Notes under the pieces: model-generated | The model's database searches: none | What the model was told of the DNA's origin: nothing | What the model saw: only the letters and a program-made list of their open reading frames with translations | Shown: piece after piece, positions 331 through 55,511 of the stretch | Layout: each line of letters begins with the position of its first letter | Position numbering within the stretch: position 1 is the stretch's first letter | Assembly (NCBI GenBank): GCA_963815115.1 | Contig: CAWFFN010000005.1 | Coordinates: 1,376,001-1,440,000 of the forward strand | Length of the DNA stretch: 64,000 bases | Reading direction: 5' to 3' | DNA from: an uncultured delta proteobacterium | GTDB taxonomy: Bacteria; Desulfobacterota; Binatia; DP-6 | Made by a program: the position numbers and the translations under genes

Positions 331-415
331 CATGGGCGCGATGAACGGGGTTTTGCGAAGGTTTACGGAACGCCCCATCCCGGGCCATCGCCGCATTTTC
401 GCCCGCTCCGTAACA
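331..415 (-). repeat. oriIS-like mini-element copy A (ori end degenerate: CATGG for GATAG)
   Basis: Near-identical to the 85-bp unit at 17809, 21555, 24728, 26434 and 42994; ends ...GCTCCGTAACA. Confidence 0.9.
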
Positions 416-751
416 AGGCCGACGATACGCTTCGGGAGATCACCGCGTTCCTGGAGCAGTATCGCCGCGCCACCGAGGCTCACGATGTCGACGACCTCGC
501 CGCCATGTACACGTCGTTCTCTCCAGCGCAGCACGCGGCGCTCGAACGCTACTTCGCCGGCGTGCGAGACCTCCGGATCGGGATCGATTCACGTGGAGGC
601 CGCCGTGGTCGGCGAGGAAGCCGTGGTCAGCTACACGCGGACGGACGACTTCGTCGACGTCCAGACGGGGCGACCAGGGCACGTGTCGGTGCGGCTGACG
701 AAGACGCTGCGGCAGGTGAACGGGCGGTGGCTGTTCGCGTCGGCACGGTGA
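416..751 (+). pseudogene. C-terminal fragment of an NTF2/SnoaL-like domain protein, 5'-truncated by copy A, one frameshift
   Basis: ...FLEQYRRATEAHDVDDLAAMY... then ...EAVVSYTRTDDF...RLTKTLRQVNGRWLF* in two frames; starts at the repeat end. Confidence 0.5.
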
Positions 752-823
752 GGGTCATTGTTCGCGGACCGGGACCAGGCTGATCGGAGGCACGGCGGCA
801 TCCGTAGAGTCGGGCGTCGGCCC

Positions 824-1129
824 TCAGGAAGCAGGTCCCAGCGGTTTCCGCTTCGTGTGGCGCACCGTCAGGAGGAAGACGGTCTCTTTCTCCACGCTGA
901 ACAGAACGCGGTGCTCACGGCAGAGGAGCTGTCGGACCTCGACCCCGAACGCTTCAGATTCGGCCTCGGCTACCGGACAGCGACGGGGGAGAGTCTCCAA
1001 TCTCTCGATCGCCGCAAGGATGTCTGTGTGCCAGACATCCGCCCCCTGCGGCGAGCGCTTCTTGTACCACGCATACGCTCGGTCAATGTCTCGCTCGGCC
1101 CGTCGTGTGACCTCGACGCCGAACCTCAT
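824..1129 (-). CDS. RelE/ParE family type II toxin
   Basis: 101 aa, VEVTRRAERDI...LETLPRRCP...HRVLFSV...VRH; overlaps the antitoxin stop codon. Confidence 0.85.
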   Translation of the reverse strand: MRFGVEVTRRAERDIDRAYAWYKKRSPQGADVWHTDILAAIERLETLPRRCPVAEAESEAFGVEVRQLLCREHRVLFSVEKETVFLLTVRHTKRKPLGPAS

Positions 1130-1425
1130 GCGCTCCTGGGCAGCTTGTGCTTTCGGCGCATCTGCTCCAGAAAAGCCCGAGCAGGCTTCGTGCGGCCATG
1201 CTTCGCATCCTCAAGACCCTCGGCGACGGCGGAGAGGGTCTCGGCCTGATCAACTATGGCCATGATCCGCTCATAGCTGTCAGCGTCCATGACGACGGCC
1301 TTTGCCCGGCCGTTGAGCGTGAGGACGAGGGGACGCTTTGACCGCTCCAGGCGCTTGAGGTGATCCTTGGTGTTTCGTTGAAAGTCAGTGACGGGGAAGA
1401 TGTCGGAGAGCTGTACCATGTGCAC
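1126..1425 (-). CDS. Phd/YefM family antitoxin
   Basis: DIFPVTDFQRN...RPLVLTLNGRAKAVVMD..YE pattern, upstream of the toxin. Confidence 0.85.
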   Translation of the reverse strand: MHMVQLSDIFPVTDFQRNTKDHLKRLERSKRPLVLTLNGRAKAVVMDADSYERIMAIVDQAETLSAVAEGLEDAKHGRTKPARAFLEQMRRKHKLPRSA

Positions 1426-1617
1426 CTCAGCAGGGAATTATCAGGTTTAAACTCGATACAGCGATCGGCTCTGGGCGTCAAGGCCGATAGATGGGGTGAA
1501 GCGGCTGGCGAGGTATGACCGGAAGTTGTGGATCGTGGAGTCCGTGACCCCGGCGGCGTATCCTCCCGCCTGATCGACCGCCGGCCCGTGGTGCGCGGAG
1601 GGAGGGAGGCGGCACGC

Positions 1618-2891
1618 ATGCTGAAGGTCGTCGGCACCGAGACGGCGTAGGACGAGGGAGACGGGCGATCGCTGCTCGACGAGATCGCCCGTGAGGGAGC
1701 CCGCCGGATGCTCGTGGCGGCGCTGGAGACCGAGGTCACCGCGTATCTGGAGGCGCACCGCGAGGAACACGATGCCGAGGGTCACGCCTTGGTCGTCCGC
1801 AATGGCAAGGGTCGCACCCGGAAGGTGACCGTCGGGGCCGGGACGATCCCGGTGAGCGCGCCCCGCGTGAATGATCGGCGGACCGACCAAGACGGCGAGC
1901 GACGCCGATTCACGAGCCGCATCCTGCCGCCGTACATGCGCCGCTCCCCGAAGGTGGCCGAGGTCTTGCCCGTGCTCTACCTGCGGGGCCTCTCCACCGG
2001 CGACTTCCGCGAGGCACTGGCGGCGCTGCTCGGGGACGATGCGGCCGGGTTGTCCGCCACAACATCGCGCGGCTGACCAACGAGTGGGAGGTCGAGTACC
2101 GCGCGTTCCAGAAGCGGAGCCTCGCGGACCGCGACCACGTCTACGTGTGGGTCGATGGCGTCCACTTCAACGTCCGGCTGGAGGACGACCGCCTCTGCAC
2201 GCTCGTGATGATCGGCGTGCGGCCCGACGGGACGAAAGAGCTGATCACGGTCGAGGACGGCTACCGGGAGAGCGCCGAGAGCTGGAAGACCGTGCTCCGG
2301 GACCTGAAGCGCCGAGGCATGCGCCCGCCCGTTGTCGCCGTGGGCGACGGTGCCCTTGGGTTCTGGGCGGCGGTGCGGGACGTGTGGCCGAAGACCCGTG
2401 AGCAGCGGGACTGGTTTCACAAACTCGGCAACATCCTCGACAAACTCCCGAAGCGGCTCCAGCCGCGCGTGAAGGCCGCGCTCCACGAGATGATGTACGC
2501 CGAGACCCGTGACCAGGCGCGCGAAGCCGCGCAGCGGTTCGCCACCGACTAAGGTCCCAAGTATCCGAAGGCCGTCACGACCCTGGAGAAGGACGCCGAC
2601 GTGCTGCTCACGTTCTTCGACTTCCCCGCCGAGCACTGGAAGCACTTGCGGACGTCGAATGTGATCGAGTCGCCGTTCGCGACGGTGCGGCTGCGCCAGC
2701 GCGTGACGAAGGGCGCCGGCTCGCGCACGAAGGGCCTCTTGATGGCCTACAAGCTCCTGGACATGGCGCGGGCCCGATGGCGGCGGCTCGACGGGGCTCA
2801 CCTCCTGCCGCTCGTCGGAGCCGGCATCGTTTTCGTCGACGGGGAGCAGCAGCCACGCCAGGGCAGCAAGACGCGAGCGAGGGCCGCGTGA
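1618..2891 (+). pseudogene. IS256-family transposase with stops and a frameshift
   Basis: RNGKGRTR, LYLRGLSTGDF, VWVDG, DGALGFW, HLRTSNVIES motifs split over three ORFs. Confidence 0.9.
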
Positions 2892-10900: not shown

Positions 10901-11124
10901 GTGGCCACCAAATTGTCGTTGGACACTGCTGTGATGCGATGACTCGGAGACGACGATGCACTTCGAGCTGGTCAGCGAGATCACGGCAGTTGTCACGGTA
11001 GAGTACTCGTAAGTCCATGCTCAAGCGCAATATTCTTTGCCCATTTGAGCTGGTTCCCCTCCTGGACTGGACAGGGTACAGGACCCGAGTCTCCCATCGG
11101 AGGTGACGCGAAGGGCCATGGGCC

Positions 11125-11212
11125 GATAGGACGCAAGAAGGGGGCATTCGCCCTTCGCGCCTACCAGCCATCTGCCCCAGGCGCGTCTACTAGCCGCCGC
11201 CCTGCCGTAACG
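11125..11212 (-). repeat. Divergent oriIS-like mini-element copy B
   Basis: GGCC|GATAGGACGCAAGAAGGGG...CCCTGCCGTAAC; same length and ends as the main family, different middle. Confidence 0.6.
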
Positions 11213-11463
11213 ACGCGAATTGACGGATACAAGCGCGAGCGTTGCTCATTGGGCGCCGTCTCGGCTGACCCCGTGGTCCACGCGAACCGTATCGCGGCGG
11301 AGGGCAGCCCGTCTTCATTGCTACGGCTGTCTGCCGTAACCAGGTCGGCACGAGCACGTAGCGGGGCGTTGGTTGATTTTCGACACCGCCCTCGCTGATG
11401 GCATGACGTAACGCGCATCGGCGTAGTCGTCGCGCGAGGGGGTGCCGGCGCGGGTCAGCGCTG

Positions 11464-13379: not shown

Positions 13380-13548
13380 AGCGCCTGGTGCGGACGGCCG
13401 CTACACCAGATCGAGCGCAGCGACACCTTCGACTCGTCGGTCGGCATCCGCTGGCGGTGCGCGGAGAACGTCGTGCTCTCGGCGAACGCGCTGGTGCCCC
13501 TCAATCGTAAGGGACTCCAGGCCGACTTCATCCCGACCCTGGAGGGCA
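13380..13548 (+). pseudogene. C-terminal fragment of a probable outer-membrane beta-barrel protein, cut by copy C
   Basis: ...DTFDSSVGIRW...LSANALVPLNRKGLQADFIPTLEG| followed by the repeat. Confidence 0.4.
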
Positions 13549-13637
13549 GATAGGCGCGATGAAGGGCCTTTTTCCGCGAAGGCTTAGAGAACGCCCCCTG
13601 CTCCGACGTTCGCTGAGTTTTCGCCTGCTCCGTCACA
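13549..13637 (-). repeat. oriIS-like mini-element copy C (hybrid type)
   Basis: GATAGGCGCGATGAAGGGCCTTTT...TTCGCCTGCTCCGTCACA. Confidence 0.8.
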
Positions 13638-13741
13638 GAGCAGCGGCGGGGGGCAGCGTTTCGGCGTAGGCTACAGATGAGCTACGCTATCATCTGGACG
13701 CAGCGCTGCCGCAGTCGCCAAGTTACTGACGTCGCCGTCAT

Positions 13742-17640: not shown

Positions 17641-17808
17641 GCCCCTCGCAGAAGCTGTCCGGACACTCGGCGCTGTGCGTGCATGGATTCCCCGCGTTGG
17701 AGCCGCCGAAGCAGACGAGGCCACCGCAGTCCGGCGGATCGGCGCAGGCCGTCTGGCACCGGCTCTCGAACCTCTTGCGCGCCGTCTCGTAGCAGCCGGA
17801 CGTCGGCC

Positions 17809-17893
17809 GATAGGAGCGATGAACGGGGTTTTGCGAAGGTTTACGGAACGCCCCATCCCGGACCTTCGCCGCATTTTCGCCCGCTCCGTAACA
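17809..17893 (-). repeat. oriIS-like mini-element copy D
   Basis: Full 85-bp consensus unit. Confidence 0.95.
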
Positions 17894-17990
17894 ACGGGAG
17901 TTCGGCTCTCCTCGGCACTTTTTCCGCTTGCCATTGAATGGTGTGGATCGATCGATTCAGCGACTCAACAGTGAGCCAGTGCCAGTAGAG

Positions 17991-18692: not shown

Positions 18693-19062
18693 ATGACATC
18701 TGCTACGTCTACGTGCTTGCGCTCTCGTACCCACGGTCTCCCCTCGCGTGCGGTGATCCTCGTACTCTGACGACATATCGCTCCCAAGCGTGTCACGAGT
18801 CTCTGGCCTCTGAGGGAGCCGCCTCCACCTCGCCCCGCGCTGGTCCCTGGGGGCCCGACCCGGAGGAACACGAATCACGGCGCTGCTTGCGGACGTACGT
18901 CGTGCCAAGCGGTACGAAACCACGGACGGCGCCCGCCTCCGCCGGGTCGTCTGAACGCCGTGATCTCTGCAACGCGGCTTCTGAGGATGGTCGCGATCTC
19001 CCCGGTGGGGCAGCTGCCGGGGCGCACCTAGATGACCTTTGGCAGATGGGCGACATGAAGCA

Positions 19063-20600: not shown

Positions 20601-20628
20601 TATCCGACGCATCTCGGCGCTCCGAAGG
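20601..20628 (-). repeat. Mini-element copy E, inner half
   Basis: ATCCGACGCATCTCGGCGCTCCGAAGGA resembles ATCCC..CGCATTTTCGCCCGCTCCGTAACA. Confidence 0.5.
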
Positions 20629-37077: not shown

Positions 37078-37096
37078 TCTAGCCGGCGCGACGGCG

Positions 37097-37860
37097 CTAC
37101 AGCTCCCACTCGACGGGGAACATCGGATCGGGCCGGTAGGCACAGAAGAGTCCGGTCTGCACGGCGCGGTCGAGGTGACGGCCGAGGACGGGGCACCCGG
37201 CCTCGATCCTGCGCACGACCTTGCGCACTGCCCGGGTGACGTTCAGCCGTGCCCGCTCGGCGTCCGAACCTGCCTTGCGGGCGCGTCCGCCCAGGCCGGT
37301 CGCGCGATTGAGCTCGTCGGCGAGCATCTCCATCTCCTCGCGCAGCCGGGCGGCACGTCCGATGTCGTTGAACTCCTGCGCCTCCTGCAGCTCGCCCTGG
37401 AGCTCGCCGAGCCGCGCCTTGTAGGCGCGGCGGGCGTCGGCGTCGAGCATCTCGCCGGAATCGCCGGCGTGCAGGTCCTCGGCGCCTCCGAGGTCGAGGG
37501 CATGAAATTCGTGGCCCGGGTTGCGGAAGGAACTCGAGGAGGTACGCGACGCCCTTCATGTCCTTGAGGCGCGTGAGCTCGTCGTCGCAGGTGACCCTCC
37601 ACACGTCGCCTTCGTGACGCAGGCTGGCGATGCGTGGCGCACCGACGGCTGGGGCGAGCGCCACCGCGACGGCCGCCGGTGTCCGCGACGCCGCCTCGTC
37701 TGCCGCCAGCCGCTCCTGCAGGGCGACGAGCTCGAGCCGCGCCGCCGTGGCGGCCGCTTCCGCGCTCAGCGTGGCGGCGCGCTCCCGATCGCCGCGCTTC
37801 CCGCGCGCGCGCAAGCTGCGCGCCAGCTCGTGCTGGGTGTAGTGAGCGGGTCCGGATCGG
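37097..37860 (-). pseudogene. C-terminal fragment of an ATPase/TPR-type regulator, frameshifted
   Basis: LRHEGDVW...KGVAYL / LDADARRAYKARL...ERARLNVTRA...HLDRAVQTGLFCAY. Confidence 0.65.
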
Positions 37861-37947
37861 GTCAAGCGCACGGCGCCCGCACCCGACGTCCTTTTCCACT
37901 TCACGCGCGCAATGGATCCGTGGTAGGCGGGAGCGGGGGGAACGCCA

Positions 37948-40785
37948 GTGTTGCGATTCGCAGCTCTTGGCTCGCTCGTCGTCGCCCTCACTGGGTCGCC
38001 GGTCCGTGCCACCACCGCTCAGGATCTCTGCGGCAACCCCGTTCCCGATCCCTGCCGGATCACGACGTACCGCGCGGTGGCGCCCGGATCTGTTCTCGAC
38101 TTTCGCCCCGGCGCTCTCATCCTCGCGGCGAATGGAATCCTCGACGCCGGCGCTGGTCAGATGGGGATCGTCGCCCGCGCCGTGACGCTCGGGTCCGGAT
38201 CCCGGCTGCTCGCGGCCGGCGGCCGGGTCAGCGTCCTCGCGGAAGATCGCATCACGGTCGACGCTGCGGCCAGGATCGACGTCTCGGCCACGGGCGGCGG
38301 CGGGGCGATCGTGCTGTTCGCGCTCGCCGACGTCCTGATCGACGGCGCGCTGCGCGCGAGGGGGGTCGGGATACCCGCGTTCGGCGGATCGATCTTCGTC
38401 GCGGCCGACGCCGCGGTCCGCCTCGACGACGTGGACGCCAGCGGTGGCTCCCAGGCGTATCCGATCACAGATCGGGCGAGCGTCCGCGTCGTGGCCGGCG
38501 GCCGTGTGGATCTGAACGGCCTCGTCGACGCCTCGCACGGCGAGTGCCTGACCTGCTCGATCGACGTCAAGGCGGGCGGCGACCTCACCGCGCAGAAGCT
38601 GGACGTGCACGCGACGGGCCCGTCGGGCAACGGCGGCTCGATCACGGTCGAGAGCGAGGGCTCGATCAGGCTGAACGGTGATCTCGCTGCGCCCGGGGGC
38701 GGCGGCGACCCGGATTTCGGCGGTGGCGGCGGTGAGGTCGAGGTGACCGCGCACGACGACCTCGCGGTGAACGGCTCGATCCTCCTCGGGGGCACGGCGC
38801 CCGACGGCGATGGCGGCACGTTCGACCTGCAGGCGGGCGGTGACCTCCGGATCGCCACCTCGTCCGTGCTCGACACGGAAGGCGGTGGTGAAGGCTGCGG
38901 TGGCTCCCCCAGCTCGCTCGACGCGGGGCGCGATCTCACCATCGGACGGATCAAGGCGGGCGGCGACTCCTGCGGCGGAGGATCACTCGACGCGTCGGCC
39001 GGGCGCGACGTGACGGTGCTGGGTCGGGTCACCGCGGGCGCCAACGCGGACGGCTCCGGGGGAGACGTGACGATCACCGCGGCGCGCGCGGCGGACATCC
39101 GTGCCGACCTCGACGCCAGTGGGGCGGCGGCCGGGAGCGGGGGCTCGGTCCTGGTCGAGGGTTGTACGGTGAGCATCCTGGCCGGCGTCGTGATCCAGAC
39201 GAACGGCTCCGACGGCGGCAACACGCTGCTCGCCCATGGCCTGATGACGGTCGCGGGGCGTCTCGAAGCGGGCGGCGCGAACGTCCTCGCCTTCGGCAAC
39301 CCCGCCAGCCCGCCGATCATCACCGGAGCGGTCGTCCCCCCGACGACCCCGAGACTCGATCCGACTCTGACCCCCTGCGCCGGACTGGCCGCGTGCGGCG
39401 ATGGGACGCGCGACGCATCCGAGGAATGCGACGACGGCAACACGGAGTCCTGCGACGGATGCTCGGCCAGCTGCCAGGTCGAGCTCTGCGGCAACGGCCG
39501 GCTGGACTGCGGCGAGGTGTGCGATCCACCGGACCTCGAGCACTGCGACGCCGCCTGCCAGGTGCTGCCCCAGGCCATCGTCACGCTTCCCGGCGCGCCT
39601 CGTCGAAACGGCTGCGAGCTCGAGTGGAAGGTGGAGCTCGGCGATCCGACCCTGGACTCGCATGGCCTCCCGAAGACGACCCAGAGCTGCATCGACGGGG
39701 ATACCGCCTGTGACGCCGACGCCGCCAACGATGGCCGCTGCACGATCCGGACACGCGTCTGCCTGCGCGCCCGCGACCCGCGACTTCCCGACTGTGCGCC
39801 GGGCGCGATCGACAGCGTCAAGATGAAGTCCCCGTTGCCTCTGAATTCCGACGACCCGACCGACGTCGCCAACGCGAACGTCCTGCGCGATGCGCTGAGC
39901 GCTCTGGGCGTGACCGTGAAGCAGGGGACCACGGTCCTGCACGCCGGCGTTCCGGATCCCCAGCTCGATCACTGCACCCCGCCGCTCTCGCTGGTCGTGC
40001 CGCATGGCGCGAGGAAGGAGCGCCGCCGCTTCGACCTCGGCGCCCAGGACGTCGACGGCCACGTCATGACCGGCAACCCGCTGAGGCTCGACTGTGCCCC
40101 GAGCACCGCGGTGTGCGGAGACGGCGTCGTCGGCACGGGCGAGAACTGCGACGATGGCAACACGCAGGGGTGCGACGGCTGCTCGCCGACCTGCCATGCG
40201 GAGGCGTGCGGCAACGGCGTCATCGACTGCAACGAGCAGTGCGACGCCGGCATGCCGAACCCGCCGCCCGCGACCGGCTGCACGGCGGCCTGCACGGAGA
40301 CCCCGCCCGCACTGCGCATCCCGGGTGGCGGCGGCCGCCCGGTCGACTGCGCCCAGGAATGGGCGCTGGTCCTCGACGCGAGCGAGACCGCGGTCGACGG
40401 ACGGGGCGTTCCGAAGACCACCCAGGAGTGCGTCGACGACGATCCCCGGTGCGACTTCGACGCGACGTCCGGTACCTGTCGCCTGCACGTCTTCTCGTGC
40501 CTGGGAGGCGCTGATGTCCGGCTGGGATGCCCGGCTGCCACCGTCGCCAGCGTCGACGTGGTGCAGCCGCGCGTTTCGGACGGCGGCACGGTTCGCGATG
40601 CGCTGATCGGTGCCCTGAGCGAGCTGCACCTCCCGGTGGGTCCCGGAGAAGCGTGTACGCGGCGGGTCGACGTCGACGTGCCGGCGGGGAGGAAGGGCGC
40701 CGTGCTCAAGCTGAGCGCCGCCCTGGCCAGCGGGAAACCAGACCGCGACAAGCTGAAGGTCCGCTGCCTTCCCGCCGCCCCGTGA
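37948..40785 (+). CDS. Secreted protein with Gly-rich beta-helix-like region and DUF4215 (myxobacterial Cys-rich) repeats
   Basis: Signal-like start; GxGG-I repeats; CGDG..EECDDGN..DGCS motifs. Confidence 0.8.
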   Translation: MLRFAALGSLVVALTGSPVRATTAQDLCGNPVPDPCRITTYRAVAPGSVLDFRPGALILAANGILDAGAGQMGIVARAVTLGSGSRLLAAGGRVSVLAEDRITVDAAARIDVSATGGGGAIVLFALADVLIDGALRARGVGIPAFGGSIFVAADAAVRLDDVDASGGSQAYPITDRASVRVVAGGRVDLNGLVDASHGECLTCSIDVKAGGDLTAQKLDVHATGPSGNGGSITVESEGSIRLNGDLAAPGGGGDPDFGGGGGEVEVTAHDDLAVNGSILLGGTAPDGDGGTFDLQAGGDLRIATSSVLDTEGGGEGCGGSPSSLDAGRDLTIGRIKAGGDSCGGGSLDASAGRDVTVLGRVTAGANADGSGGDVTITAARAADIRADLDASGAAAGSGGSVLVEGCTVSILAGVVIQTNGSDGGNTLLAHGLMTVAGRLEAGGANVLAFGNPASPPIITGAVVPPTTPRLDPTLTPCAGLAACGDGTRDASEECDDGNTESCDGCSASCQVELCGNGRLDCGEVCDPPDLEHCDAACQVLPQAIVTLPGAPRRNGCELEWKVELGDPTLDSHGLPKTTQSCIDGDTACDADAANDGRCTIRTRVCLRARDPRLPDCAPGAIDSVKMKSPLPLNSDDPTDVANANVLRDALSALGVTVKQGTTVLHAGVPDPQLDHCTPPLSLVVPHGARKERRRFDLGAQDVDGHVMTGNPLRLDCAPSTAVCGDGVVGTGENCDDGNTQGCDGCSPTCHAEACGNGVIDCNEQCDAGMPNPPPATGCTAACTETPPALRIPGGGGRPVDCAQEWALVLDASETAVDGRGVPKTTQECVDDDPRCDFDATSGTCRLHVFSCLGGADVRLGCPAATVASVDVVQPRVSDGGTVRDALIGALSELHLPVGPGEACTRRVDVDVPAGRKGAVLKLSAALASGKPDRDKLKVRCLPAAP

Positions 40786-40794
40786 CGGCGGTGC

Positions 40795-42265
40795 TCAGCC
40801 GCGCGCGGCCGCGGCTTCGCCGCCGACGCCGAGGGCGCGGTGCAGCAGACCAATCAGGTGAGGCCGCATGCGCCCCGCAGGTACGACGGCGTCGAGCGAG
40901 CCGACACGCCGCGCGCGTTCGACCGAGTGGACGGCGTCGAACTCGTCGGCGATCCGTCGCTGCGCCGCCAGGACCGCGTCGTCCATTGCACGCTGCAGCG
41001 CCGCCCGCGCCTCTCCGCTCGGATGCGGGCCGAGCGCACCGCGGAGGCGTTGCACGGTCGGGTCGGCGGCGGCCCGTGCCCGCACCTCGCGCGTGAGCAC
41101 GACGGCCGCGGCCGGCGCTCCTCCGATCACCGAAGCGTAGGAGCCCTCCAGCGCCGAGGCGTCGAGCGCCGGGTTCAGCGCCCTGGAGAATACGACGTAC
41201 GCGTCGCCGTGATAGCGCGAGACCACCAGGAAGCAGATCGGACCCTCGAACTCGACCACCGCGCGGGCGATCTCGGCGCCGTGCTCGAGCTGGAGGTTCC
41301 GCATCGACTCCGGTGAGCCGTCGAAGCCGGAGAGGTTGGCGAGCACGACGGCTGGCCGGTTGCCGCTCGCCGCCCCGAGCGCGCGCGCCACCTTCTTCGA
41401 GGACAGCGGGAAGAGCGTGCCGCCGGTCCACGCCGCCGGGCCATCCGACGGCCGATACCCCTCGCGGAGCACGGGCCGGCTTTCGATGCCGATCAGGCAT
41501 ACCGGGATCCCGCCGACATGCGCATCCCAGACGATGGCAGTCTCGGCGTTCGCCCACCGGCGCCAGCGCTCGAGCCAGTCGCCGTCCTGATCGATGAGGG
41601 CCTGCATGACGGCCCGCATCGCGAACGGTCGCTTGCGGCCGGCATTGGTGCGCTCGTCGAAGATGCTGCCGACGGTGGCGAAGCCGTCGTCGGAGTCGCT
41701 CACATAGGGATAGTCGCGGACGTCGCGGTCGAACGGATCGTCTGTGAGGTGCGAGCGGGGACGACGTTCGCCGGGTGCGACGTAGGTGAAGCGATAGTGT
41801 GCGTACAGGGTACGATAGGCGCCCAGCAGGTCGGGCGCGTCGTACTGCCCTTCGCCGTTGAGCCCCATCACCCGCTCATAGCCGCCGATCGCCACCTCGT
41901 CCTCCGCCGCGACGCTGCCCGAGGCCTCGAGCGCGGCCCGGCCCGTGAGAACCATCGAGGCCCCGGGCGTCATCACGAGCGCGCCGCGCGTGTGCATGAG
42001 CATCGTGGCGAGCGCATTCCAGTAGCTCTGTGCGCCCACGTTCACCCCCGACACCAGCACATGGATGACGCCGCCCCGGCGCGTGAAGGAGACGATTCGC
42101 CGCACGACACGGGCGGTCGCATCGAGATTCTCGGTTCCGCTGTCCATGGCGATGCGGGCGCCGCTCGAGATTGGCACCCACTCCAGCGGCACCCCGCGTG
42201 CCTCGGCGAGATCGATGGCGGCCACGATGCGATCGCATTCGGCACCGCCGAGCGCACCCATCTCC
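40795..42265 (-). pseudogene. C-terminal carboxyltransferase part of a large acyl-CoA carboxylase, 5'-truncated by copy J
   Basis: SSGARIAMDSGTEN, NVGAQSYWNA, LANLSGFDGSPES, ASVIGGAPAAAVV; begins at the repeat end. Confidence 0.85.
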
Positions 42266-42353
42266 TGTTACGGAGCGTGCGAAAATGCGGCGAAGGTCCG
42301 GGATGGGGCGTTCTGTAAGCCTCCGCGGCAAAAGGCCCTTCGTCGTGCCTATC
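42266..42353 (+). repeat. oriIS-like mini-element copy J (identical to copy I)
   Basis: Same 88-bp sequence followed by AGCTCC. Confidence 0.95.
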
Positions 42354-42993
42354 AGCTCCCCGCCGGACACGTCCTGGTGCTCGACGGCATCGCCTGGGGC
42401 GCCAGCGCTGGGATGCCGGGACGCCTGATCGGCATCCTCGTCGACATCAACGGCGATTTCACCAACGCACCCTGGAACGACAGCGCCATCGCCGACTCCG
42501 TCGGAGACGTCGCACACGACGTGTTCATCCCGAACATCCCAATCAAGAGCGGCGTGACACCGTGCCTGCACAGCGGCGGCACGATCACGCGCGGCATCGT
42601 TCACGGCTTCCTCACCAACGACAGATAGCTTCTTCATCCAGCGGGCCGCCCGGCGCACCCGCGTCGGGCGGCGCCATCTCGCCTCTGCACGATCCGCTGG
42701 GAATTGTGAGATAAACCGATCCGGGGCCATCTGCGGAACAGCGGTGTTCGGCTCCGGCTTCAGCGCGACGCAGAATGCCTTTCGCTACGACGGATCGGGG
42801 CTTCCGGTCGACCTCGGCCCTAAGGAAATGGGTTACGACGTGTCCCAGTGCACCGGCCGCGCCGGGTCGGGACGGTAGACGCAGAAGTACCCGCGCCGCA
42901 CCGTCGCCGTCAGATGCCGGCCGAGCTCGGGATGACTCGCCGCGATCCGCTCGAGCGCGCCCTTGAGGCCCTTCGTCACCGCCACCCGAGGCC

Positions 42994-43078
42994 GATAGGA
43001 GCGATGAACGGGGTTTTGCGAAGGTTTACGGAACGCCCCATCTCGGACGTTCGCCGCGTGTTCGCCTGCTCCGTAACA
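42994..43078 (-). repeat. oriIS end of the IS91/ISCR element (copy K)
   Basis: Downstream of the transposase on the same strand; ends CCCGTTCATCGCTCCTATC, similar to IS91/ISCR oriIS. Confidence 0.85.
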
Positions 43079-43229
43079 ACGCAGCGCACAATCGGTGGGC
43101 CGGGGTGGCCGCAGGGGTCCTCCCGTGGGGCCGGGGCCGCCGTCGGGAACCCGACTGGGCGGTGGTCAGTCGCCAGACATCGCCGGGCGGACACACCCCG
43201 GGCGTCGGCGCGGGCACCGGTGGACGGGC

Positions 43230-44912
43230 TCAGCTCCAGTCGAACAGGTCGGACGGCGCCGGCCGGAGCGCTGACGCCTCGGTCGGGAGCCCGAGGTGGG
43301 TGAGAATCCTCCGGATGACGACGGGGTCCTCGATGGTGGCCACGACGCGCATGCGGCCGCCACACCGGAGCACAAGCCAACACGTCCACCCCGAACGTAT
43401 GCCGCATCAGCTCCGGCCACGACCACTTGCGCGACGCCGGCGGTGGGGGCGCCTCCACGCTCACGGTGGTGGCCGGGTCTCGACTCGTCACCGGCGCCGG
43501 AGCCGACAGCGGGTTCGCTCTGGTGTCCGCCGAGCGTCACGACGGGATCGCGGTGCGCCGCAACACTCACCTCCAGTCCGCCGTCGGACGGCGGTGCGTT
43601 CGATGGAACGGGCGGAGTTGCCGACCCGCACGCGACCGCAGCGTTGCGACCGACGGGGGCGAGGGTGTCCCGCCCGTAGGCGACCGCCCGGGCGCGCCAC
43701 CGACTGTGCGGCGCTAACACACCATGGTATAGAACGAGGTTGATCGCGCGGGCGCGGCGTGAGCGCCGCCAGCCGTTCGAGCAACTCGATCGGTTCGAAC
43801 AAGAGGTGCGTGGTGCCGTCGCTCCATTCCGCCTTCAAGGTGAGGAGCACGCGGCCATCGGCGGTGCGGCTCAACCGTTCCTGCGCGATCGGCGGCCGCA
43901 GGACGTAGCGCGCGAGCTGTTCCAGCCCGTCGCGGTTGTTCGCCGCGACGGCGACGTTGGCGTGGAGATCGAAGCCGTCCAGGTGGGCCTGGCGGGTGCC
44001 GGTGGTGGTCACCCAGGGCGCGCCCGGCACGCGGCCGAGCTGCAGCACCCGCGCCCCGGCCCGCGGCCCGAGGGCGCTGCGGCCCTGGACCGCCGCACTC
44101 GTGATGCCGGCGAGCGCGAGGGACGTCTCGGCCAGGGGATCGCGCGCGTCGTCGTCTTCGGCCTCCACGAACACCCCGCGCCGCCGCAGCAGGCGCAGGA
44201 CGCGGGTGCGGATGGTGGCGACGAGCCGGGCGACCTCGGCATCGGTCGGCGCCGGGGCCGGGTGGAAGCGCAGCGTGCCGTCGGCGGCTTCCGTGAACAC
44301 GCCGTCGAGGAACAACGCGTGGCTGTGCACGTTGAGCTGGAGGCCCGAGCCAAAGCGTTGGATCACCGTCACCGAGCCGGAGTCGCCGTCGATCCCCCCG
44401 GCGCGCCGCGCCCGCCGACGATACCAGCCGAGCACGGCCCGCAGGAACACCCCGATGACGGCCCGACAGAGTGCGTGGTCGAAGGCGAGCCGGTAGCGCA
44501 GCCGGTGGGGGACGGTGAGCACCCATTGCCGGACCGGGACCCAGGGCAGGATCGCCTGGACGAGATTCGCCGCCTGCTCCGCCATGCGCCGCCCGCCGCA
44601 ACTGGCGCAGACCGCGCGGCCTTTGCAGGACAGCGGCAGGAGGCGCTCGAACGCACAGTCGTCGCACCGGACCCGCAAAAAGCCATGGACGAGCAGCCCG
44701 CAGCGGAGGAAGCCGCGGAGCTCGCGCTCGATGAAGCGGGGCAGGCCGACCCCGTCGGTGCGGGCGGCGGCCGCGGCGAGGAAGGTCTCCAGATGCTCCT
44801 GGACCACCCCGTGCAGGACCGTGTCGGCGGCGGCGCGCGGAGCGTAGGGAGCCACGGCGCGGGGCCCAGCGGCTTCCGTGCCGTGCGGCAACGCCTCGCT
44901 GCAGGACGCCAA
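43230..44912 (-). pseudogene. IS91/ISCR-family rolling-circle (HUH Y2) transposase with frameshifts
   Basis: Zn-finger CG..HGF..C..C...SCKGRAVCASCG; QWVLTVP; QRFGSGLQLNVHSH; GFDLHA; ARYVLRPP; LYHGVLAP; C-terminal ...IRRILTHLGLP. Confidence 0.9.
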
Positions 44913-45179
44913 GACGAGCTGGCACTGGGCACCGAGGCGGCGGGGTCAACACCCGGCGCAACCGCGCGTTACACTGCCGGCCATCGGTCGGCTCGCTACG
45001 ATCTGCTACGACCGCGTGCGCGGGCCAGGCTCGATGATCAAGTCCTCGGGGAGGTCGTCGTCCTGGGGGTGTGGGTTGCGGAGGGTGACCGCCCAGCGCC
45101 GGATCGGCTTGCATCAGCGCCGCGATGCCCGTCGGAGGCCGAAGCCGGAAGTGCCACTCGTCCCGAGGGAACACCGCGG

Positions 45180-48277: not shown

Positions 48278-49960
48278 TCACGCCGCGGGCGACGCATCTC
48301 CGCCGGGGCCGACCAGGCCTGCAGCGCGCAGAGCGCGATAGGTCGTGTAGCCGCCCGAGAGGTTCGCCGCGTCGTGGTCGTGCTGGCGCAGCAGGCGCAC
48401 GGCATAGTAGCCGCGCTGCCCCACCTGGCAGTACACGGCCAGCGGCCGATCACGCGGCAGGTCCGCATGGCGCCGACGGAGCTGGGACAGCGGGACGTTG
48501 ACCGCGCCCTCGATATGTCCGGCGGCAAACTCCTCCGCCTCGCGCACGTCGATGACGTGTCGCTCGCCGAGGCGCTGCCAGTCCGCGAGCGGCATGTCCC
48601 CGTCCAAGTGATTGGTGGCGATCATGCCGGCAAGGTTCACGGGATCTTTCGCGGCCCCGAACTGCGGCGCGTAGCACAGCTCCGCTTCCGCGAGGTCGCG
48701 CACCGTGCCGCCCATCTGGATCATCGTGGCGATCACGTCGATACGCTTCTCGACGCCCTCGAGTCCGATGGCCTGGGCGCCGAGCACCCGGCCCTCCGGG
48801 ACGGAGAACAGCAGCTTCAGATGGATCGGGCGTGCGCCGGGATAGTAGCCGGCGTGATGGCCGGGATGCAGGTAGACGCGCTCGAAGGCGGTCACGCCCG
48901 CCCGCCGTAGTCCCTTCTCGCTGGCGCCGGTGGAGGCGACGGTCAGTCCAAAGACGCCCACCACCGCCGTGGCCTGCACGCCCCGGAACTCGCGATGGCG
49001 CCCGCAGATCGCGTCCGCGGCGACGCGGCCCTGGCGGTTCGCGGGGCCGGCCAGCGGCACGATCACGTCCTGGCCCGTGACGACGTCGCACACCTCCACC
49101 GCGTCGCCCACCGCCCAGATGGCCGGGTCGGCGGTCCGCATCTGGGCATCCACGAGGATCCCGCCGCGCGGGCCGAGCGGCAGTCCGGCGGCCGCCGCGA
49201 GGCCGGTCTCCGGCCGCACGCCGATGGCCAGGATCACGAGGTCGGCCGCGAGGCGCGCGCCGGATTCGGTGATGGCCACGATGCCCGAGCCGTCGGGCTC
49301 GAAGCGCGCCAGGCCGTCGCCCAGGCGCACCGTCACGCCCTGCTCGGCCAGGTGTGCGCGCACCGGTTCCGCCATCTCGGGGTCGAGCGGCGGCATCACC
49401 TGCGGCAGCTTCTCGAGCACGGACACCGCGAGGCCGCGGCGCGCCAGGTTCTCGGCCATCTCGAGGCCGATGAACCCGCCCCCGACGACGAGCGCCCGGG
49501 CCGGCTGGCGCTGCTCGATCCACGAGCGGATGCCGACGCTGTCGGGAATGGTGCGGACGGCGAAGATACCCGGGAGGTCGATGCCCGGCATCGCGGGACG
49601 GATGGGCGCCGCACCCGGGGACAGCACGAGCGCGTCATAGGGCTCCCGGCGCACGCGGCGGTTGGCGAGGTCGAGCACCGTGATCGTCTGCGCTTCCCGG
49701 TCGATCGCGGTCACCTCGTGCCGCGTGTGGACCGCGATGGCGAAGCGCTCGCGGAAGAGGTCGCTGGTGGCGACGAGCAGCTGGCGCTGATCCGCGATGA
49801 CGTTGCCGACGAAGTACGGCAATCCACAGTTGGCAAACGACACGTGTGGCCCGCGGTCGAAGATCACGATCTCCGCCGACTCGTCGAGACGGCGCAGCCG
49901 CGCGGCGCATGATGCGCCGCCGGCGACCCCTCCGACGATGAGGACGCGCCGCCTGGCCAC
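48278..49960 (-). CDS. CoA-disulfide/persulfide reductase with C-terminal rhodanese domain
   Basis: GGVAGGAS, SFANCGLPY, GGGFIGLE, ELCYAP, DVRE...YCQVGQRGY. Confidence 0.92.
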   Translation of the reverse strand: MARRRVLIVGGVAGGASCAARLRRLDESAEIVIFDRGPHVSFANCGLPYFVGNVIADQRQLLVATSDLFRERFAIAVHTRHEVTAIDREAQTITVLDLANRRVRREPYDALVLSPGAAPIRPAMPGIDLPGIFAVRTIPDSVGIRSWIEQRQPARALVVGGGFIGLEMAENLARRGLAVSVLEKLPQVMPPLDPEMAEPVRAHLAEQGVTVRLGDGLARFEPDGSGIVAITESGARLAADLVILAIGVRPETGLAAAAGLPLGPRGGILVDAQMRTADPAIWAVGDAVEVCDVVTGQDVIVPLAGPANRQGRVAADAICGRHREFRGVQATAVVGVFGLTVASTGASEKGLRRAGVTAFERVYLHPGHHAGYYPGARPIHLKLLFSVPEGRVLGAQAIGLEGVEKRIDVIATMIQMGGTVRDLAEAELCYAPQFGAAKDPVNLAGMIATNHLDGDMPLADWQRLGERHVIDVREAEEFAAGHIEGAVNVPLSQLRRRHADLPRDRPLAVYCQVGQRGYYAVRLLRQHDHDAANLSGGYTTYRALRAAGLVGPGGDASPAA

Positions 49961-50475
49961 GCCCCTCACCTCGCCGCCGTGCGGCAATGCCCGGCTCCGC
50001 CGAGACCGCCTCGGTGGGCGCGCCGGTGGCCAGCTCGGGCCCGCTCCGTCTTGCGGTCCAGCGTGACAGGGCCACGCGCGCTCCGGACCGCTGCCACGTC
50101 GCGGATCGTCACCGTGGCCCCAGCGACAGAATCCGGGCGGCGCAGCGGTCTTGGAGGCATTCGTACTCATAGCACTCGGCGTGCCAACGATGCACCGCGC
50201 ATCCTCCGGGCGGCATTCCCCTCCGTGCGACGCGCGGGCGCTTCGAACTGGCGCCGGCGAGAAACTCCGGCCGAGACGAGGTCCCGGGCCGGTCTGCCAG
50301 TCCGGCGTGACCTTCAGCCGGGTTGGCAGCGAGGGTATCTGCGCGCGCAGCACCAGCGGCTCGCCCTTGCTCCTCGGTGGTGATCTTCGCTCCGTGGTGC
50401 CAGAACGTCGCGACCTATTGGGTTCTGGTATGCTGTCGAGCGGGATCGGGCGGCTCGTGGCACAGGGAGTTCACG

Positions 50476-51177
50476 ATGGACATCCATCCATTCTTCGACG
50501 CAGCCACCTCGACGCTGACATACGTCGTGCACGACGGCGGCCACGCGGTGGTGATCGACCCGGTGCGAGACTTCGATCCGCGCAACGCCGGCACCTCGTG
50601 GGCGTTCGCACAGGCGGTCGCGGACCATCTCGACGAGCGGCGTCTGGTGGTCGACTACGCGATCGATACCCATGCGCACGCCGACCACATGACGGGCCTG
50701 CCGTTCTTCGTCGAGCGCTACGGTGCGCGCACGGTCACCGGGAGCAAAATCGGCGCCATCCAGCGCATCTTCCGCGACGTGTACGATCTCGGGCCCCACT
50801 TCCCCGTCGATGGCCGGCAGTTCGACGTGCTGCTGGACGAAGGCGATCGACTCGAGTTCGGGTCGCTCACCGTCCGGGCTCTGCACACCCCGGGCCATAC
50901 CCCGGCGCACATGTCGTGGCAGATCGGCGACGCGGTGTTTCTTGGCGATACCCTCTTCGCGCCCGACTACGGTACGGCGCGGTGCGACTTTCCGGGCGGC
51001 TCCGCGGAACAGCTCTGGGACTCGATCCAGCGGCTCTACGCCATGCCGGACGGCACCCGGCTGCAGGTGAACATCCGCGCCGGCGCGCTGCCCGAACCAG
51101 CGCCGAACGGCGTGTCCTACCTGCGCATCCCCCTCGACTACCTCGGCCGGCGGCGGACGCCCGAGGTGGCTCCGTGA
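50476..51177 (+). CDS. Persulfide dioxygenase-like MBL protein (appears internally shortened)
   Basis: [35 protein letters not shown]-terminal QVNIRAG..P..NGVSYL. Confidence 0.85.
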
Positions 51178-51602
51178 CCGAGTTCACGCCCGTCTCCTCG
51201 CTCGCCGGCGGCGCGCTCATCGGCGCCGCGGCGACGCTGCTGCTCTGGCTCGATGGCCGCATCGCCGGCATCAGCGGCATCGTCGGCGGTCTGCTGCGCC
51301 GCCGACCCGGCGACATGGCATGGCGCGCCGCCTTCGTCGTCGGTCTCCTCGCGGGTGGCCTCGTGCTGCGGCTCGTCGCCCCGGCCACGGTCGCCTTCGC
51401 GCTCCAACGTTCCCCGGCAACGCTGATCATTGCCGGCCTCCTGGTGGGGTACGGCACCCAGCTCGGCAACGGCTGTACGAGCGGTCACGGGGTGTGCGGT
51501 CTCAGTCGTGGGTCGCGGCGCTCGCTGGCGGCGACGGTCGCCTTCATGACGACGGGAGTCCTGACCGCGCTCGCGGCGCGCCTGCTCGGAGGCGCCCCGT
51601 GA
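51174..51602 (+). CDS. YeeE/YedE sulfur transporter subunit
   Basis: [30 protein letters not shown]. Confidence 0.9.
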
Positions 51603-52051
51603 TCGCTCTGGCGGCGCTGGTGGCCGGTCTGGTGTTTGCCCTCGGCCTCGGGCTCGGTGGCATGACGCAGCCGGCAAAGGTGATCGGCTTCCTCGATGTC
51701 GGCGGCGATTGGGATCCGAGCCTCGCCTGCGTGATGGCGGGGGCGCTCGTGGTGCATGGGCTCCTCGTTCGGCTCGTCCTGCGCCGGTCGGCGCCTGTCC
51801 TGGCATCCCGCTTCGTTCTCCCCGCCCGCACCGATCTCGACGCATCCCTGATATCGGGAGGCGTGCTCTTCGGCGTCGGGTGGGGGCTCGTCGGCTTCTG
51901 CCCAGGTCCGGCGGTGACCGCACTCGGCGGCGGCATGCCCGAGGCCGTGGTGTTCGTGTCGGCCATGTTGGCCGGGATGGCGGTCGAGCACCTGGTCGCG
52001 CGCCGCCGCGCCAGCATCGGCGGAGCGGCCTCGGCTCCGGCCGTCAGGTAG
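51599..52051 (+). CDS. YeeE/YedE (DUF6691) sulfur transporter subunit
   Basis: [32 protein letters not shown]. Confidence 0.9.
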
Positions 52052-52068
52052 ACCCAAGCAGCTCGCCG

Positions 52069-52455
52069 ATGCGACGCCCCGCGCTCAACCTCGTGGTCGA
52101 TGCGATCGCGTTCGCGGGTTTCGTGTTCATGACCGCGAGTGGTGTCCTGCTGCGCTTCGTCCTGCCGCCGGGGAGCGGTCACCGCACGAGCATCTGGGGG
52201 CTCAATCGGCACGAGTGGGGGGGGATTCACTACTGGACGGCCGTCGCCCTCCTGACCGCGCTCTCGGTGCACGTCGTGCTGCACGGGAAGTGGATCGTGC
52301 ACATGGTTCGTGGCCAGCAACGCGAAGGCTCCGGCATCCGGGTCGCGCTGGGTCTCGTCGCCCTGGTGGCGATCCTGGCGCTGGCCGCCGCACCGCTCTT
52401 CAGCCCGGTTGAGCGGGTCGCACCCGCACGACGGCGGGGAGGGCACGACTTCTAG
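52069..52455 (+). CDS. DUF4405 family membrane protein
   Basis: GLNRHEWGGIHYW...HVVLHGKW. Confidence 0.75.
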   Translation: MRRPALNLVVDAIAFAGFVFMTASGVLLRFVLPPGSGHRTSIWGLNRHEWGGIHYWTAVALLTALSVHVVLHGKWIVHMVRGQQREGSGIRVALGLVALVAILALAAAPLFSPVERVAPARRRGGHDF

Positions 52456-52630
52456 CGCGGCTCGATGTGTCCGCACGGGACGTGTGGAACCGCATCGTCC
52501 AGTTCGACACGAAAGACGGCATGTGCCGGTCGAAGACGTGGTGCGCCAGCCGTATGCCATGCCTGGATGTCGAAAATCCGTGAGGCGACTTGAAAGGTGC
52601 ACATTCAGATGAGACGATCGTGCGACAACG

Positions 52631-53038
52631 ATGAGCCCGACCCTACGAGGTGGCTTGCTCGTGCTGCTTCTCGCGACGACGGTGGGCGCTGCCGATCCGG
52701 CCGGTCGGACGCTGTATCTGCGCTACTGTGCCTCCTGCCACGGTCGTGACGGACGCGGTGACGGTCCCGTCGCTCCCGCGCTGGGTGAGAAGCCCACGGA
52801 CCTGACCAAGCTCGCTGCGGCGAACGGGGGCGTCTACAACCTGGACGCTGTCGTCGAGGCGATCGATGGAACACGCACGCTGCGCGCCCACGGGGTCTCC
52901 GAGATGCCGATCTGGGGCGAGGTCCTCCAGGCCGACCCCGCCGCGCCGCTCGAGCAACAGATCGTGGCGGGCGGGAGAGTCATTGCCATTGCCCGGTACT
53001 TGCGCTTCCTGCAAGGCGGCGGGCAGCCGTCTCACTGA
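52631..53038 (+). CDS. Monoheme cytochrome c
   Basis: Signal peptide, CASCHG, HG..MPIWG. Confidence 0.85.
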
Positions 53039-53737: not shown

Positions 53738-53967
53738 TGGTGCCACCGTGTAGGCGAGTTTCAGGAGGCCAAGGCAGTTCTCCGCCATCCATGGCCCAAT
53801 CGAACGACGCCTCGACTCCGGGCTGAGTTCTCCGGTCACGATCTGAGAGTGCGCGGTCCGGTATGACGTCCCTCGGGGACGACGTGGTGGGTAGGGACGG
53901 GAGATGTCGGCAACCTGGACATCTTCAAGGTCCCGCCGATGCTACCTTCTTCTCCTTCCTCGTCCTC

Positions 53968-53997
53968 GACCGGCGGTTCGATTCCCCCCGCCTCCAC
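53968..53997 (+). other. tmRNA/tRNA 3'-end fragment (possible att scar)
   Basis: GACCGGCGGTTCGATTCCCCCCGCCTCCAC: T-loop plus ...CTCCAC acceptor end, with no 5' half. Confidence 0.55.
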
Positions 53998-54068
53998 TGT
54001 CGCAATGAATTCGAACCGCCGTCCGGGTCATCCAGGAGCTCAAGGAACGCGGTAGAAGACGCGCCCGG

Positions 54069-55349
54069 TCAGCGCCGGCTACGGAAGTACCTCTTGTAGC
54101 CCTCGGCCAGGGCGAGCAGGTCGGGATCGGCGTCGAACTTCGGCTGGAACTTCCGCCACGCCGCTTCACGCTTGGCCGGGATGTACTCGCTCGGCCAGTA
54201 GCCCTCGTGGGGCCGGTAGCCCTTCAGGACGTTGCGCGCCACCGTGGCCTTGTGGACCTCGTCGACGCCGTCGGCAATCCCCATGGTGGGTGCCGCCGCG
54301 TACATCGCCTGGATCGGCGTGAGGTCGGTGGTGCCCAGCGAGCCGAGGATGTGCAGGGCGTTGTAGGATACCTCACGAAGCACCTTGGCCATCGTGTACT
54401 TCACGGCGGCGATGTCGGTTCGGGCCTCCCGGGTGCTGCTGTTGTCGATCTTCCAGGCCGTCTCGAGCACGAAGAGGCGTAGCATGCGGATGGCGGCGTA
54501 GGAGTCCGCGATCGTCTCCTGCACCATCTGGTGCTCCGCGATGGTCTTGCCGTGCGACTCGCGGCTGAGCGCCCGCTCGCACATCATGTCGAAGGCGAGC
54601 TTGCACTGCGCGATGGTGCGCATCGCGTGGTGGATGCGACCGCCGCCGAGCCGCCGCTGGGCGAGCACCTTGGCACCGTCCTGCGGACCGAGCAGGTGGT
54701 CGAGAGGCACCCGGACGTCCTTGTAGATGATGTGGTTGTGGGTGCGCGGCTCCGGCTGGATCTCGACACCCGGCGTCTCGCGGGGAACCACGAACATGCC
54801 GTTCGTGCACATGACGAAGAGGATGTCGGCGACCCGACCGCCGGAGGTGAACCACTTCTCGCCGTTGATGACCCACTGGTCGCCGTCGCGCACCGCATGG
54901 GTCCTGAACAGGTTCGGGTCCGAGCCGCCCTGCGGCTCGGTCATCGAGTACGCCGAGAAGATCTCCTGGTTCAGGAGCGGCTTGAGCCAGCGCTCCTTCT
55001 GCGCCTCGGTGCCGTAGGCGGCCAGCATCTCCATGTTCCCGGTGTCGGGCGCGGCGGCGCCGAACAAGGCCGGGGCGGAGCCGTAGCGACCGAGAATCTC
55101 GTTGAGGAGGCCGAGCTTGAGCTGGCCGTAGCCGGGACCGCCGAGCTCCCCGTCGAGGAAGATGGCCCAGAGGCCCTGGTCCTTGATCTGGTCCTGGAGG
55201 CCCTTCACGAGCGCCTTGATCTTCGGGTCCTTGGAGCGGACCGCATAGGGAAACACGTAGTCGAGCGGTTCCACCTCCTCGCGGCAGAAGTGCTCCACCC
55301 AGTCGAGCTTTTTCTGGAATTCGGGTTCGGTCGAGAAGTCCCAGGCCAC
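54069..55349 (-). CDS. Acyl-CoA dehydrogenase
   Basis: APDTGNME, SMTEPQGGSDP, INGEKWF, RLGGGRIHH, IADGVDEVH. Confidence 0.92.
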   Translation of the reverse strand: MAWDFSTEPEFQKKLDWVEHFCREEVEPLDYVFPYAVRSKDPKIKALVKGLQDQIKDQGLWAIFLDGELGGPGYGQLKLGLLNEILGRYGSAPALFGAAAPDTGNMEMLAAYGTEAQKERWLKPLLNQEIFSAYSMTEPQGGSDPNLFRTHAVRDGDQWVINGEKWFTSGGRVADILFVMCTNGMFVVPRETPGVEIQPEPRTHNHIIYKDVRVPLDHLLGPQDGAKVLAQRRLGGGRIHHAMRTIAQCKLAFDMMCERALSRESHGKTIAEHQMVQETIADSYAAIRMLRLFVLETAWKIDNSSTREARTDIAAVKYTMAKVLREVSYNALHILGSLGTTDLTPIQAMYAAAPTMGIADGVDEVHKATVARNVLKGYRPHEGYWPSEYIPAKREAAWRKFQPKFDADPDLLALAEGYKRYFRSRR

Positions 55350-55448
55350 GGCGTCTCCTTTGTCTCTGGTGGGCCCGATCTTCGGGACCCACGGCCTCAC
55401 GCACTCGACCCGCATGGGCCAATCCGTCATTGCGTGTATTTCGAATTA

Positions 55449-55511
55449 CCCTTCGCCCCTACCAGCCCGCTGCCCGGCGCGTCTACCAGCCTGCCGCCCT
55501 TCCGTAAGACG
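55449..55511 (-). repeat. Partial relative of copy B (copy L)
   Basis: CCCTTCGCCCCTACCAGCC...GGCGCGTCTACCAGCC...CCGTAAGACGC aligns with 11151-11217. Confidence 0.6.

Follow-up and report, generated by a model that had tools for sequence, protein, structure and literature searches.

IS91/ISCR-family insertion sequences are blamed for moving resistance and virulence genes. To our knowledge, few records of natural one-ended capture show the captured copy together with the locus that donated it. We present here a 64,000-nucleotide stretch of DNA (C5:1376001-1440000, hereafter the window) from a 6.9-Mb genome of 70% G+C, assembled into 12 contigs, five of which are 0.85 to 1.9 Mb long. A repeat unit of 90 to 93 bp recurs throughout the window and is identified, from its sequence and position, as the origin end of an IS91-type element. 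On balance, the mosaic of gene fragments around it appears to have been built by orphan ~90-bp origin ends together with one-ended rolling-circle capture.

The closest described systems provide several points of comparison. The IS91 family is described as making no target-site duplication (TSD) and as undergoing one-ended transposition at 1 to 10%; the last 82 bp of IS91 suffice as a right end for transposition, and CTTG is one of its targets (PMC13181058). The published oriIS sequences of ISCR27, located 236 bp behind the stop codon, and of ISCR1 carry a CCTAT motif to which the unit tip is comparable (PMC8894482, PMC13023784). For IS801, right-end fragments of 229, 360, and 679 nucleotides (nt) are reported as trapped independent insertions, and full copies carried 290 to 1431 nt of neighboring DNA (PMC3189936).

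The window contains 10 full-length and two to three partial copies of the unit, which on the transposase-sense strand reads CTTGTTACGG...CCTATCNGC. In the alignment of copies, that strand starts with (C/G)TTGTTACGG and ends with CCTATCNGC. Two core motifs occur 10 and 9 times, versus 0.65 and 0.95 expected, and neither count was matched in any of 100 shuffles; one match in each list (40403 and 14808) is no unit. A repeat search of the window returned one six-copy family at 85 to 100% identity and one pair at 99%, and a unit profile gave 11 matches at an E value of <0.01.

The copies fall into four types. The A type, with the tip ...CCTATCGGC, includes U1 (332-417), in which other sequence takes the place of the final ~9 nt of the origin tip, U4 (17806-17895), U6 (21552-21641), U7 (24725-24815), U8 (26431-26520), and U11 (42991-43080), all on the minus strand; U6 and U8 were placed by the repeat family and the alignment. 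The B type, with the tip ...CCTATCAGC, is represented by U9 (28490-28582) and U10 (42264-42356), which are 99% identical and lie in the opposite orientation, on the plus strand. The C type comprises U3 (13546-13639, minus strand) and the C-like right half of U5 (19060-19109, minus strand), which is parted from an 18-nt left remnant (20611-20628, minus strand) by an IS110-family element with DEDD and Transposase_20 domains (~19110-20610, minus strand; core limits approximate). The more diverged D type was found by profile matches as the full-length U2 (11122-11215, minus strand; E value, 1.6e-10) and a partial copy at 55444-55508 (minus strand) that retains the inner two thirds only. The initial annotation had reported about 12 copies at 13 positions. 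The repeat is real, and 12 of these positions are full, near-full, or partial units: 331, 13549, 17809, 21555, 24728, 26434, 28492, 42266, and 42994 are full or near-full, with 28492 and 42266 on the other strand; 11125 is a full unit of the diverged subfamily and 55449 a partial unit of the same subfamily; and 19063 is the right half of the unit split by the IS110-family element. There is no copy at 20601, where TTCCTATCC was formed at the junction of a CoA-transferase gene fragment and the 18-nt remnant.

U11 is the oriIS end of a degenerate IS91-family insertion sequence of 2.1 kb (42991-45090, minus strand), whose left end, starting with GGTC, was placed at 45090 by comparison with a 90% identical copy in a relative. 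An open reading frame (ORF) at 43488-44891 (minus strand) matches Y2_Tnp (E value, 7.6e-21) and Zn_Tnp_IS91 (E value, 6.6e-16), and U11 lies 3′ of it on the same strand. This Y2 transposase gene, which starts at 44891, is a pseudogene with at least three frameshifts in its last third; the C-terminal zinc-ribbon motif of its homologues and the stretch preceding it are scattered over three frames. Fifty-one related IS91 loci were fetched, several of them with long open frames; 21 match to about residue 380, 19 of these with at least 800 nt downstream. Three of the 19 (L003, L018, and L009) carry a recognizable unit on the transposase strand, ending 703 to 741 nt after residue 382; in the window, the unit ends 754 nt after that residue. 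In L076, the single contig matching the strict unit pattern in one metagenome scan, the unit is preceded by sequence homologous to the interior of the window's IS91 element. Five independent sequences have the unit as the 3′ end of an IS91-type element. Because it lies 3′ of a Y2 transposase gene in the window and in related loci, has a tip like those of ISCR1 and ISCR27, and is comparable in length to the 82-bp IS91 end, we identify it as the right end (oriIS) of a rolling-circle insertion sequence of the IS91/ISCR family. The initial proposal of an IS91/ISCR-type oriIS located 3′ of the transposase agrees with these loci and with the CCTAT-type end of the unit; repeat and IS91-type transposase occur together in the window, L003, L018, and L009, and L076 adds an IS91-internal flank.

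The two ends of the unit had been described as fixed, and the alignment of copies bears this out: the flanks part ways at the same two points in every subfamily. The 22 best copies were examined for their ends, and 15 of them show the full pattern. All 15 have unrelated flanks and a direct repeat of at most 1 nt, so that no TSD is made, as had also been claimed. The inner start is CTTG in 9 of the 15 copies and GTTG, CCTG, or TCTG in the others; D-type orphans end a few bases further in (GTCGTTACGG). CCTATC had been taken as the terminus, which is instead CCTATCNGC: the NGC triplet after CCTATC belongs to the unit at four junctions with known homologues, travels with it, and is subfamily specific. 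AAG at the other end is likewise part of the unit (two junctions). The reported lack of terminal inverted repeats is only roughly right, as the tips form an imperfect 9-bp inverted repeat (68% of cells paired, no compensatory change). Subterminal imperfect palindromes at the origin end have 68 to 79% of cells paired. Searching the whole window against Rfam at gathering thresholds gave no match, and a tRNA scan of the window found none, hence no tRNA-linked island border.

Donor loci, which the initial annotation had suggested seeking, were found for three segments, on C12, C7, and C12. The first segment (418-1484, plus strand) is a 96% identical copy of C12:573442-574507 that starts one base after the inner end of U1 and contains a 5′-truncated gene; a PhdYefM-type antitoxin gene is located within it at 1126-1425. 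The second (24816-26430, plus strand) is a copy of C7:228686-230300 (94.4% identity, 1617 positions aligned) that includes a complete DUF1329 gene and fills the interval from the inner end of U7 to the origin tip of U8. The third (28583-28676), directly after the U9 tip, is a 94% identical copy of C12:805681-805775, and further C12-like pieces lie at 37097-40792. In all three donor-matched segments, homology begins or ends 0 to 2 nt from a unit end. No unit was found on C12 or near the C7 locus, and both donor loci continue past the breakpoints. Homology to relatives ends at 13544, 17805, 24724, and ~42990, the origin tips of U3, U4, U7, and U11, respectively, and at 42261, the inner end of U10; the outer flank of U3 is homologous to C12 and one relative, and that of U4 to a relative. 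Such paralogous flanks with breakpoints at unit ends are the signature that one-ended capture would be expected to leave. Under one-ended capture, a passenger would directly adjoin the inner end of a unit, and its far end would be cut arbitrarily and joined to an origin tip, which is the pattern here.

Four genes are cut 0 to 4 nt from a unit end, in line with what had been noted for the Lcl_C/DUF1566, carboxyltransferase, and tyrosine-recombinase genes and the gene at 418. Homology of the Lcl_C/DUF1566 gene to relatives ends at 24724, and the origin tip of U7 begins at 24725. For the carboxyltransferase gene, homology ends at 42261, U10 begins at 42264, and ~70 N-terminal profile positions are gone. 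The tyrosine-recombinase gene (28162-28490) is cut by the inner end of U9, leaving a 110-amino-acid (aa) N-terminal domain, and the gene at 418 keeps its last 121 aa, its C12 paralogue having at least 341 codons. The Lcl_C, carboxyltransferase, and CoA-transferase genes are longer in same-genus relatives. The CoA-transferase gene, which had been listed with those cut at a unit end, is truncated at the junction of the IS110-family element and the unit remnant. The cuts or breakpoints at U1 and U3 stand, but the names given to the genes there, "NTF2-like" (416) and "beta-barrel" (13548), are unconfirmed, with no match in Pfam. An ORF beyond U10, considered as the C terminus of the recombinase, was rejected on domain and genome matches.

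Across the genome, a narrow profile found 18 strong copies, nine in the window and nine in C9:318-429 kb. A broader profile gave 35 matches at an E value of <0.01 (11 each in the window and the C9 region and 13 in the rest of the genome), and 22 of the 35 lie within 180 kb of the 6.9-Mb genome. Within each cluster, 9 of the 11 matches are on one strand. A D-type profile gave 26 matches over six contigs, and the tips of many of these have decayed. The young subfamilies (A, B, and C) thus crowd into two regions, in contrast to the scattered, older D type. By this regional confinement and by their abutment on truncated genes, the A, B, and C types differ from intergenic repeats of the REP/BIME type, which are dispersed genome-wide between genes without disrupting them. 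Compared with the genome at ≥80% identity, the C9 cluster yielded, IS110 composites aside, no additional pair of passenger and donor with an end at a unit.

BLAST with an A-type unit gave matches in 4 of 41 genomes (its own and 40 relatives), with one to four matches in each of three relatives. A strict pattern matched 14 times in the unit's own genome; in 400 other genomes of the phylum, it gave four single matches that do not resemble the unit, versus ~13 for a reversed control. Beyond the close relatives searched, neither the A nor the B type was found. Among 16 unit loci of relatives, 15 share only ~90 bp with the source genome, and at the remaining one (L062), the match extends through an adjoining IS110-like stretch. 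Sharply bounded units also occur in four other genomes and one metagenome contig. From position 1 to ~55000, the window has no synteny with four same-genus genomes. The search of this and related genomes that the initial annotation had called for thus yields two clusters, a dispersed D type, and few relatives.

Judged by their junctions, two IS110-family elements insert into the IS91 origin unit, one mid-unit and the other exactly at the inner end. The initial account of the unit is incomplete in missing these elements, which may have shaped its inner boundary. The element that splits U5 has a second copy at C8:220336-221900, and the whole match has 98.5% identity. Divergence between the two copies is much higher in the terminal few tens of nucleotides on either side (in the right flank, 7 differences in 33 nt); because these end stretches resemble the two halves of a unit, the element sits mid-unit both in the window and on C8. 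The second IS110 type forms four identical or nearly identical 1572-bp composites on C9 (341963-343534, 352679-354250, 366037-367600, and 428602-430173), in which its junction with a B unit falls exactly at the inner end of that unit. The same inner-end junction occurs with a D unit at C8:54100-54410, and IS110 orthologues in two relatives keep 12 to 22 nt of the unit end. Given its four nearly identical copies, this second type was probably active recently. At C9:428.6-430.9 kb, an IS91 transposase remnant, an IS110 element, and a unit stand in line, without the ~550 nt expected from homologues (C-terminal zinc-ribbon region and spacer). An enzyme other than the Y2 transposase could have set the inner boundary of the unit.

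The mechanism that we favor would begin with a Y2 HUH transposase acting in trans, which would nick at the CCTATCNGC tip and peel off one strand. Should transfer stop right behind the inner palindrome, the ~90-bp mini-element would move alone; the expected cleavage sites are the CCTATCNGC tip and then a second site of cleavage or joining behind ...GTAACAAG. Should transfer run on, as in one-ended transposition, the DNA next to the inner end would be carried as a passenger. Circles of unit plus passenger could then re-enter at resident units, either at the nick site or through homologous recombination over the 90 bp, a step suggested because passenger ends join directly to the next tip. The outcome would be same-orientation runs of units and passengers in which every passenger runs, at its far end, straight into the following origin tip. 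In the source genome, the family is now dead, and IS110-family elements took the unit as a landing site at a later stage. Mobilization in trans, circles, and growth of the array are steps that we infer. A tentative and more elaborate version gives the orphan IS91 origin ends the role of docking sites: circles might re-enter precisely at the resident nick site, the relic might thereby have become an integron-like, transposase-driven capture array, and an IS110 element specialized on the same end might have reshaped that array.

Several results weigh against orphan-end mobility and one-ended capture. The genome has no intact IS91 transposase gene: one long copy is frameshifted, and the four other matches, one of them only 33% identical, are fragments. 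The flanks of all 35 own-genome units and of the 16 loci of relatives were compared with the genome, and none rejoin, so that no clean insertion was found in the source genome and five relatives. The inner end of the orphan units coincides to the base with the insertion point of the second IS110 type. The bases after the tip form no conserved target tetranucleotide; their only regularity is that G is never the first flanking base (0 of 15). The full element begins with GGTC and the mini-unit mostly with CTTG, so that the expected likeness of left end and target is not seen. Six folded unit strands gave z-scores of -0.36 to +0.82, no better than shuffles, and RNAalifold on 10 diverse units gave -2.15 kcal/mol, with no compensatory pair in three hand-drawn helices. 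Donors were identified for three passengers only. The claim that minimal elements insert and then re-launch with their neighbors accordingly keeps its orphan units and capture signature, but the units are only putatively mobile, and neither the clean insertions with rejoining flanks that had been suggested as a check nor an intact transposase gene came to light.

Rearrangement alone could be proposed in place of capture, the units being leftovers of complete IS91 copies and the mosaic a product of recombination and adjacent deletions, with no 90-bp element having moved and no passenger having been carried by a transposase. Most natural IS801 fragments were ascribed by Bardaji et al. to reorganization and not to one-ended transposition (PMC3189936). 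The window is crowded with other insertion sequences (three IS110-type elements, an IS256-type pseudogene, and an IS3-type element that has copies of 100% identity elsewhere), and the failure to find a clean insertion agrees with this explanation. Random deletions do not, however, give the same inner end to within 1 to 2 nt in 15 copies of three subfamilies, nor sharp ~90-bp units at unrelated sites in relatives. They also leave unexplained the 1.6-kb C7 copy, whose homology ends exactly at two unit ends, and the 26 dispersed D-type copies. We consider this explanation unlikely.

Still less probable, in our estimate, is that an IS110-family element of the bridge-RNA type set the inner boundary, by inserting at the inner end, after which deletions or exchanges between IS110 copies and excision stripped away the IS91 element and swapped the flanks. 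The B-unit composites on C9, the same junction with a D unit on C8, and the 12- to 22-nt remnants in two relatives speak for it, as does the order of transposase remnant, IS110 element, and unit at C9:428.6-430.9 kb with its missing ~550 nt; half-site recognition by a bridge recombinase has been reported (10.64898/2026.08.31.748434). Against it, D-type orphans end further in and not at the IS110 junction sequence, the A-type orphan U4 keeps parental bases at the boundary, passengers have no IS110-like starts or ends, and the origin-tip junctions are left unexplained.

An integron-like array, with the units as attC-like sites and the intervening segments as cassettes moved by a tyrosine recombinase, is highly improbable. 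The units do share an orientation with genes between them, their tips form an imperfect inverted repeat, and a tyrosine-recombinase fragment lies at 28162-28490; that fragment, however, is a 110-aa N-terminal stump cut by a unit, with no other match or paralogue in the genome, the segments between units are 0.6 to 13.7 kb long and consist of truncated genes, insertion sequences, and intergenic DNA, and IS91-type elements terminate 3′ in the unit in the five sequences described above. On its gene-sense strand, the unit has GTTAC... at the 5′ end and ...CTATC at the 3′ end, a polarity opposite to what we take to be the attC consensus. An assembly artifact, in which the contig was mis-joined at a short repeat and the unrelated flanks are chimeric, is equally hard to credit: a fraction of 0.23 of the sampled words was present in the best public run, whose contigs are short and shallow and bridge no unit, but a 90-bp repeat would presumably not break or mis-join a 12-contig assembly with five contigs of 0.85 to 1.9 Mb, sharply bounded units recur in the four other genomes and the metagenome contig, and the junctions are base-exact against paralogues.

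The window has other features. An IS256/Mutator-type transposase gene at 1510-2892 is broken into three ORFs; a possible unit tip beside it at 1485-1508 was rejected, having no matching remainder on the far side. Next to U2, a stretch of ~85 bp (11251-11335) is 88 to 93% identical to sites in two same-genus genomes and 93 to 97% identical to four sites in its own genome, and contains no tRNA and no Rfam match. An IS3-family element at 26820-28110 (HTH_Tnp_1 and rve ORFs) was probably active recently, given that C8 has two copies of it at 100% identity; other copies are 94 to 96% identical. The block between the two B units (28583-42263) is partly a 90 to 94% identical copy of C12:805681-812783. 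Within it, the region 29900-37100 has internal repeats at a spacing of ~165 to 340 bp and two very large ORFs of 497 and 1805 aa; a scan that covered the 497-aa ORF found MopE-like metal-binding motifs. The unit-free region C12:566-578 kb shares pieces with the window at 418-1484 and 13406-13544 and with C9 at 358079, 363514, and 364940, and could be a related island or a place from which passengers of both clusters came. At 48278-53038, past the IS91 element and before the final partial unit, is a gene group resembling those for sulfur handling: a pyridine-nucleotide disulfide oxidoreductase with a rhodanese domain, a metallo-beta-lactamase-fold protein, DUF4405, a cytochrome c, and two sulfur-transport-like membrane proteins.

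The description of the locus as a "bacterial Helitron-like shuffling system" is largely supported as regards the nature of the unit and the makeup of the mosaic, except that the mechanism was already known from IS91, ISCR, and IS801. That mechanism is rarely documented, and its form here is new, very compact, and amplified. The window provides base-exact junctions for three captured segments and a minimal ~90-bp origin unit in several subfamilies, and together these constitute a defined substrate for locating the sites of nicking and termination by a Y2 transposase. Short orphan origin ends can point to hot spots of gene shuffling overlooked by annotation pipelines, and IS110-type recombinases can apparently specialize on the end of another insertion sequence.

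Compared with eukaryotic non-autonomous Helitrons, the likeness is one of mechanism only (rolling-circle movement, asymmetric ends, no TSD, and host-gene fragments picked up); there is no Rep-helicase fusion here, and the captured DNA lies beside the element and not inside two defined ends. Integron cassette arrays similarly alternate same-orientation runs of a short, imperfectly palindromic site with genes, whereas this locus has no integrase, contains fragments and multigene segments, and has a site that belongs to an IS91-type element. IS110/IS1111 elements with REP sequences, attC sites, or transposon ends as targets also insert at fixed points of a short repeated palindromic sequence; the target here differs in being the origin end of another insertion sequence, for which a non-exhaustive literature search found no report of IS110-family insertion. 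With IS91/ISCR elements such as ISCR1 and ISCR27, the locus shares a Y2 HUH transposase, a 3′ oriIS ending in CCTAT, the absence of a TSD, and, probably, the mobilization of DNA beyond the other end. It differs in that its passengers are ordinary chromosomal genes of a soil bacterium and not resistance genes, its transposase is at most 43.6% identical to plasmid-borne IS91-family genes, and orphan origins far outnumber transposase genes. The IS801 miniatures of Pseudomonas syringae are likewise transposase-less, contiguous origin-end pieces with an intact right tip and a defined left end, are described as making no TSD, and occur with one-ended capture of adjacent DNA (PMC3189936). The movement of IS801 was trapped experimentally (PMC3189936), and that of the unit is deduced. 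The unit differs further in its length of 90 to 93 bp, its several subfamilies, and its dozens of copies, the young ones lying in two regions as runs of units and passengers.

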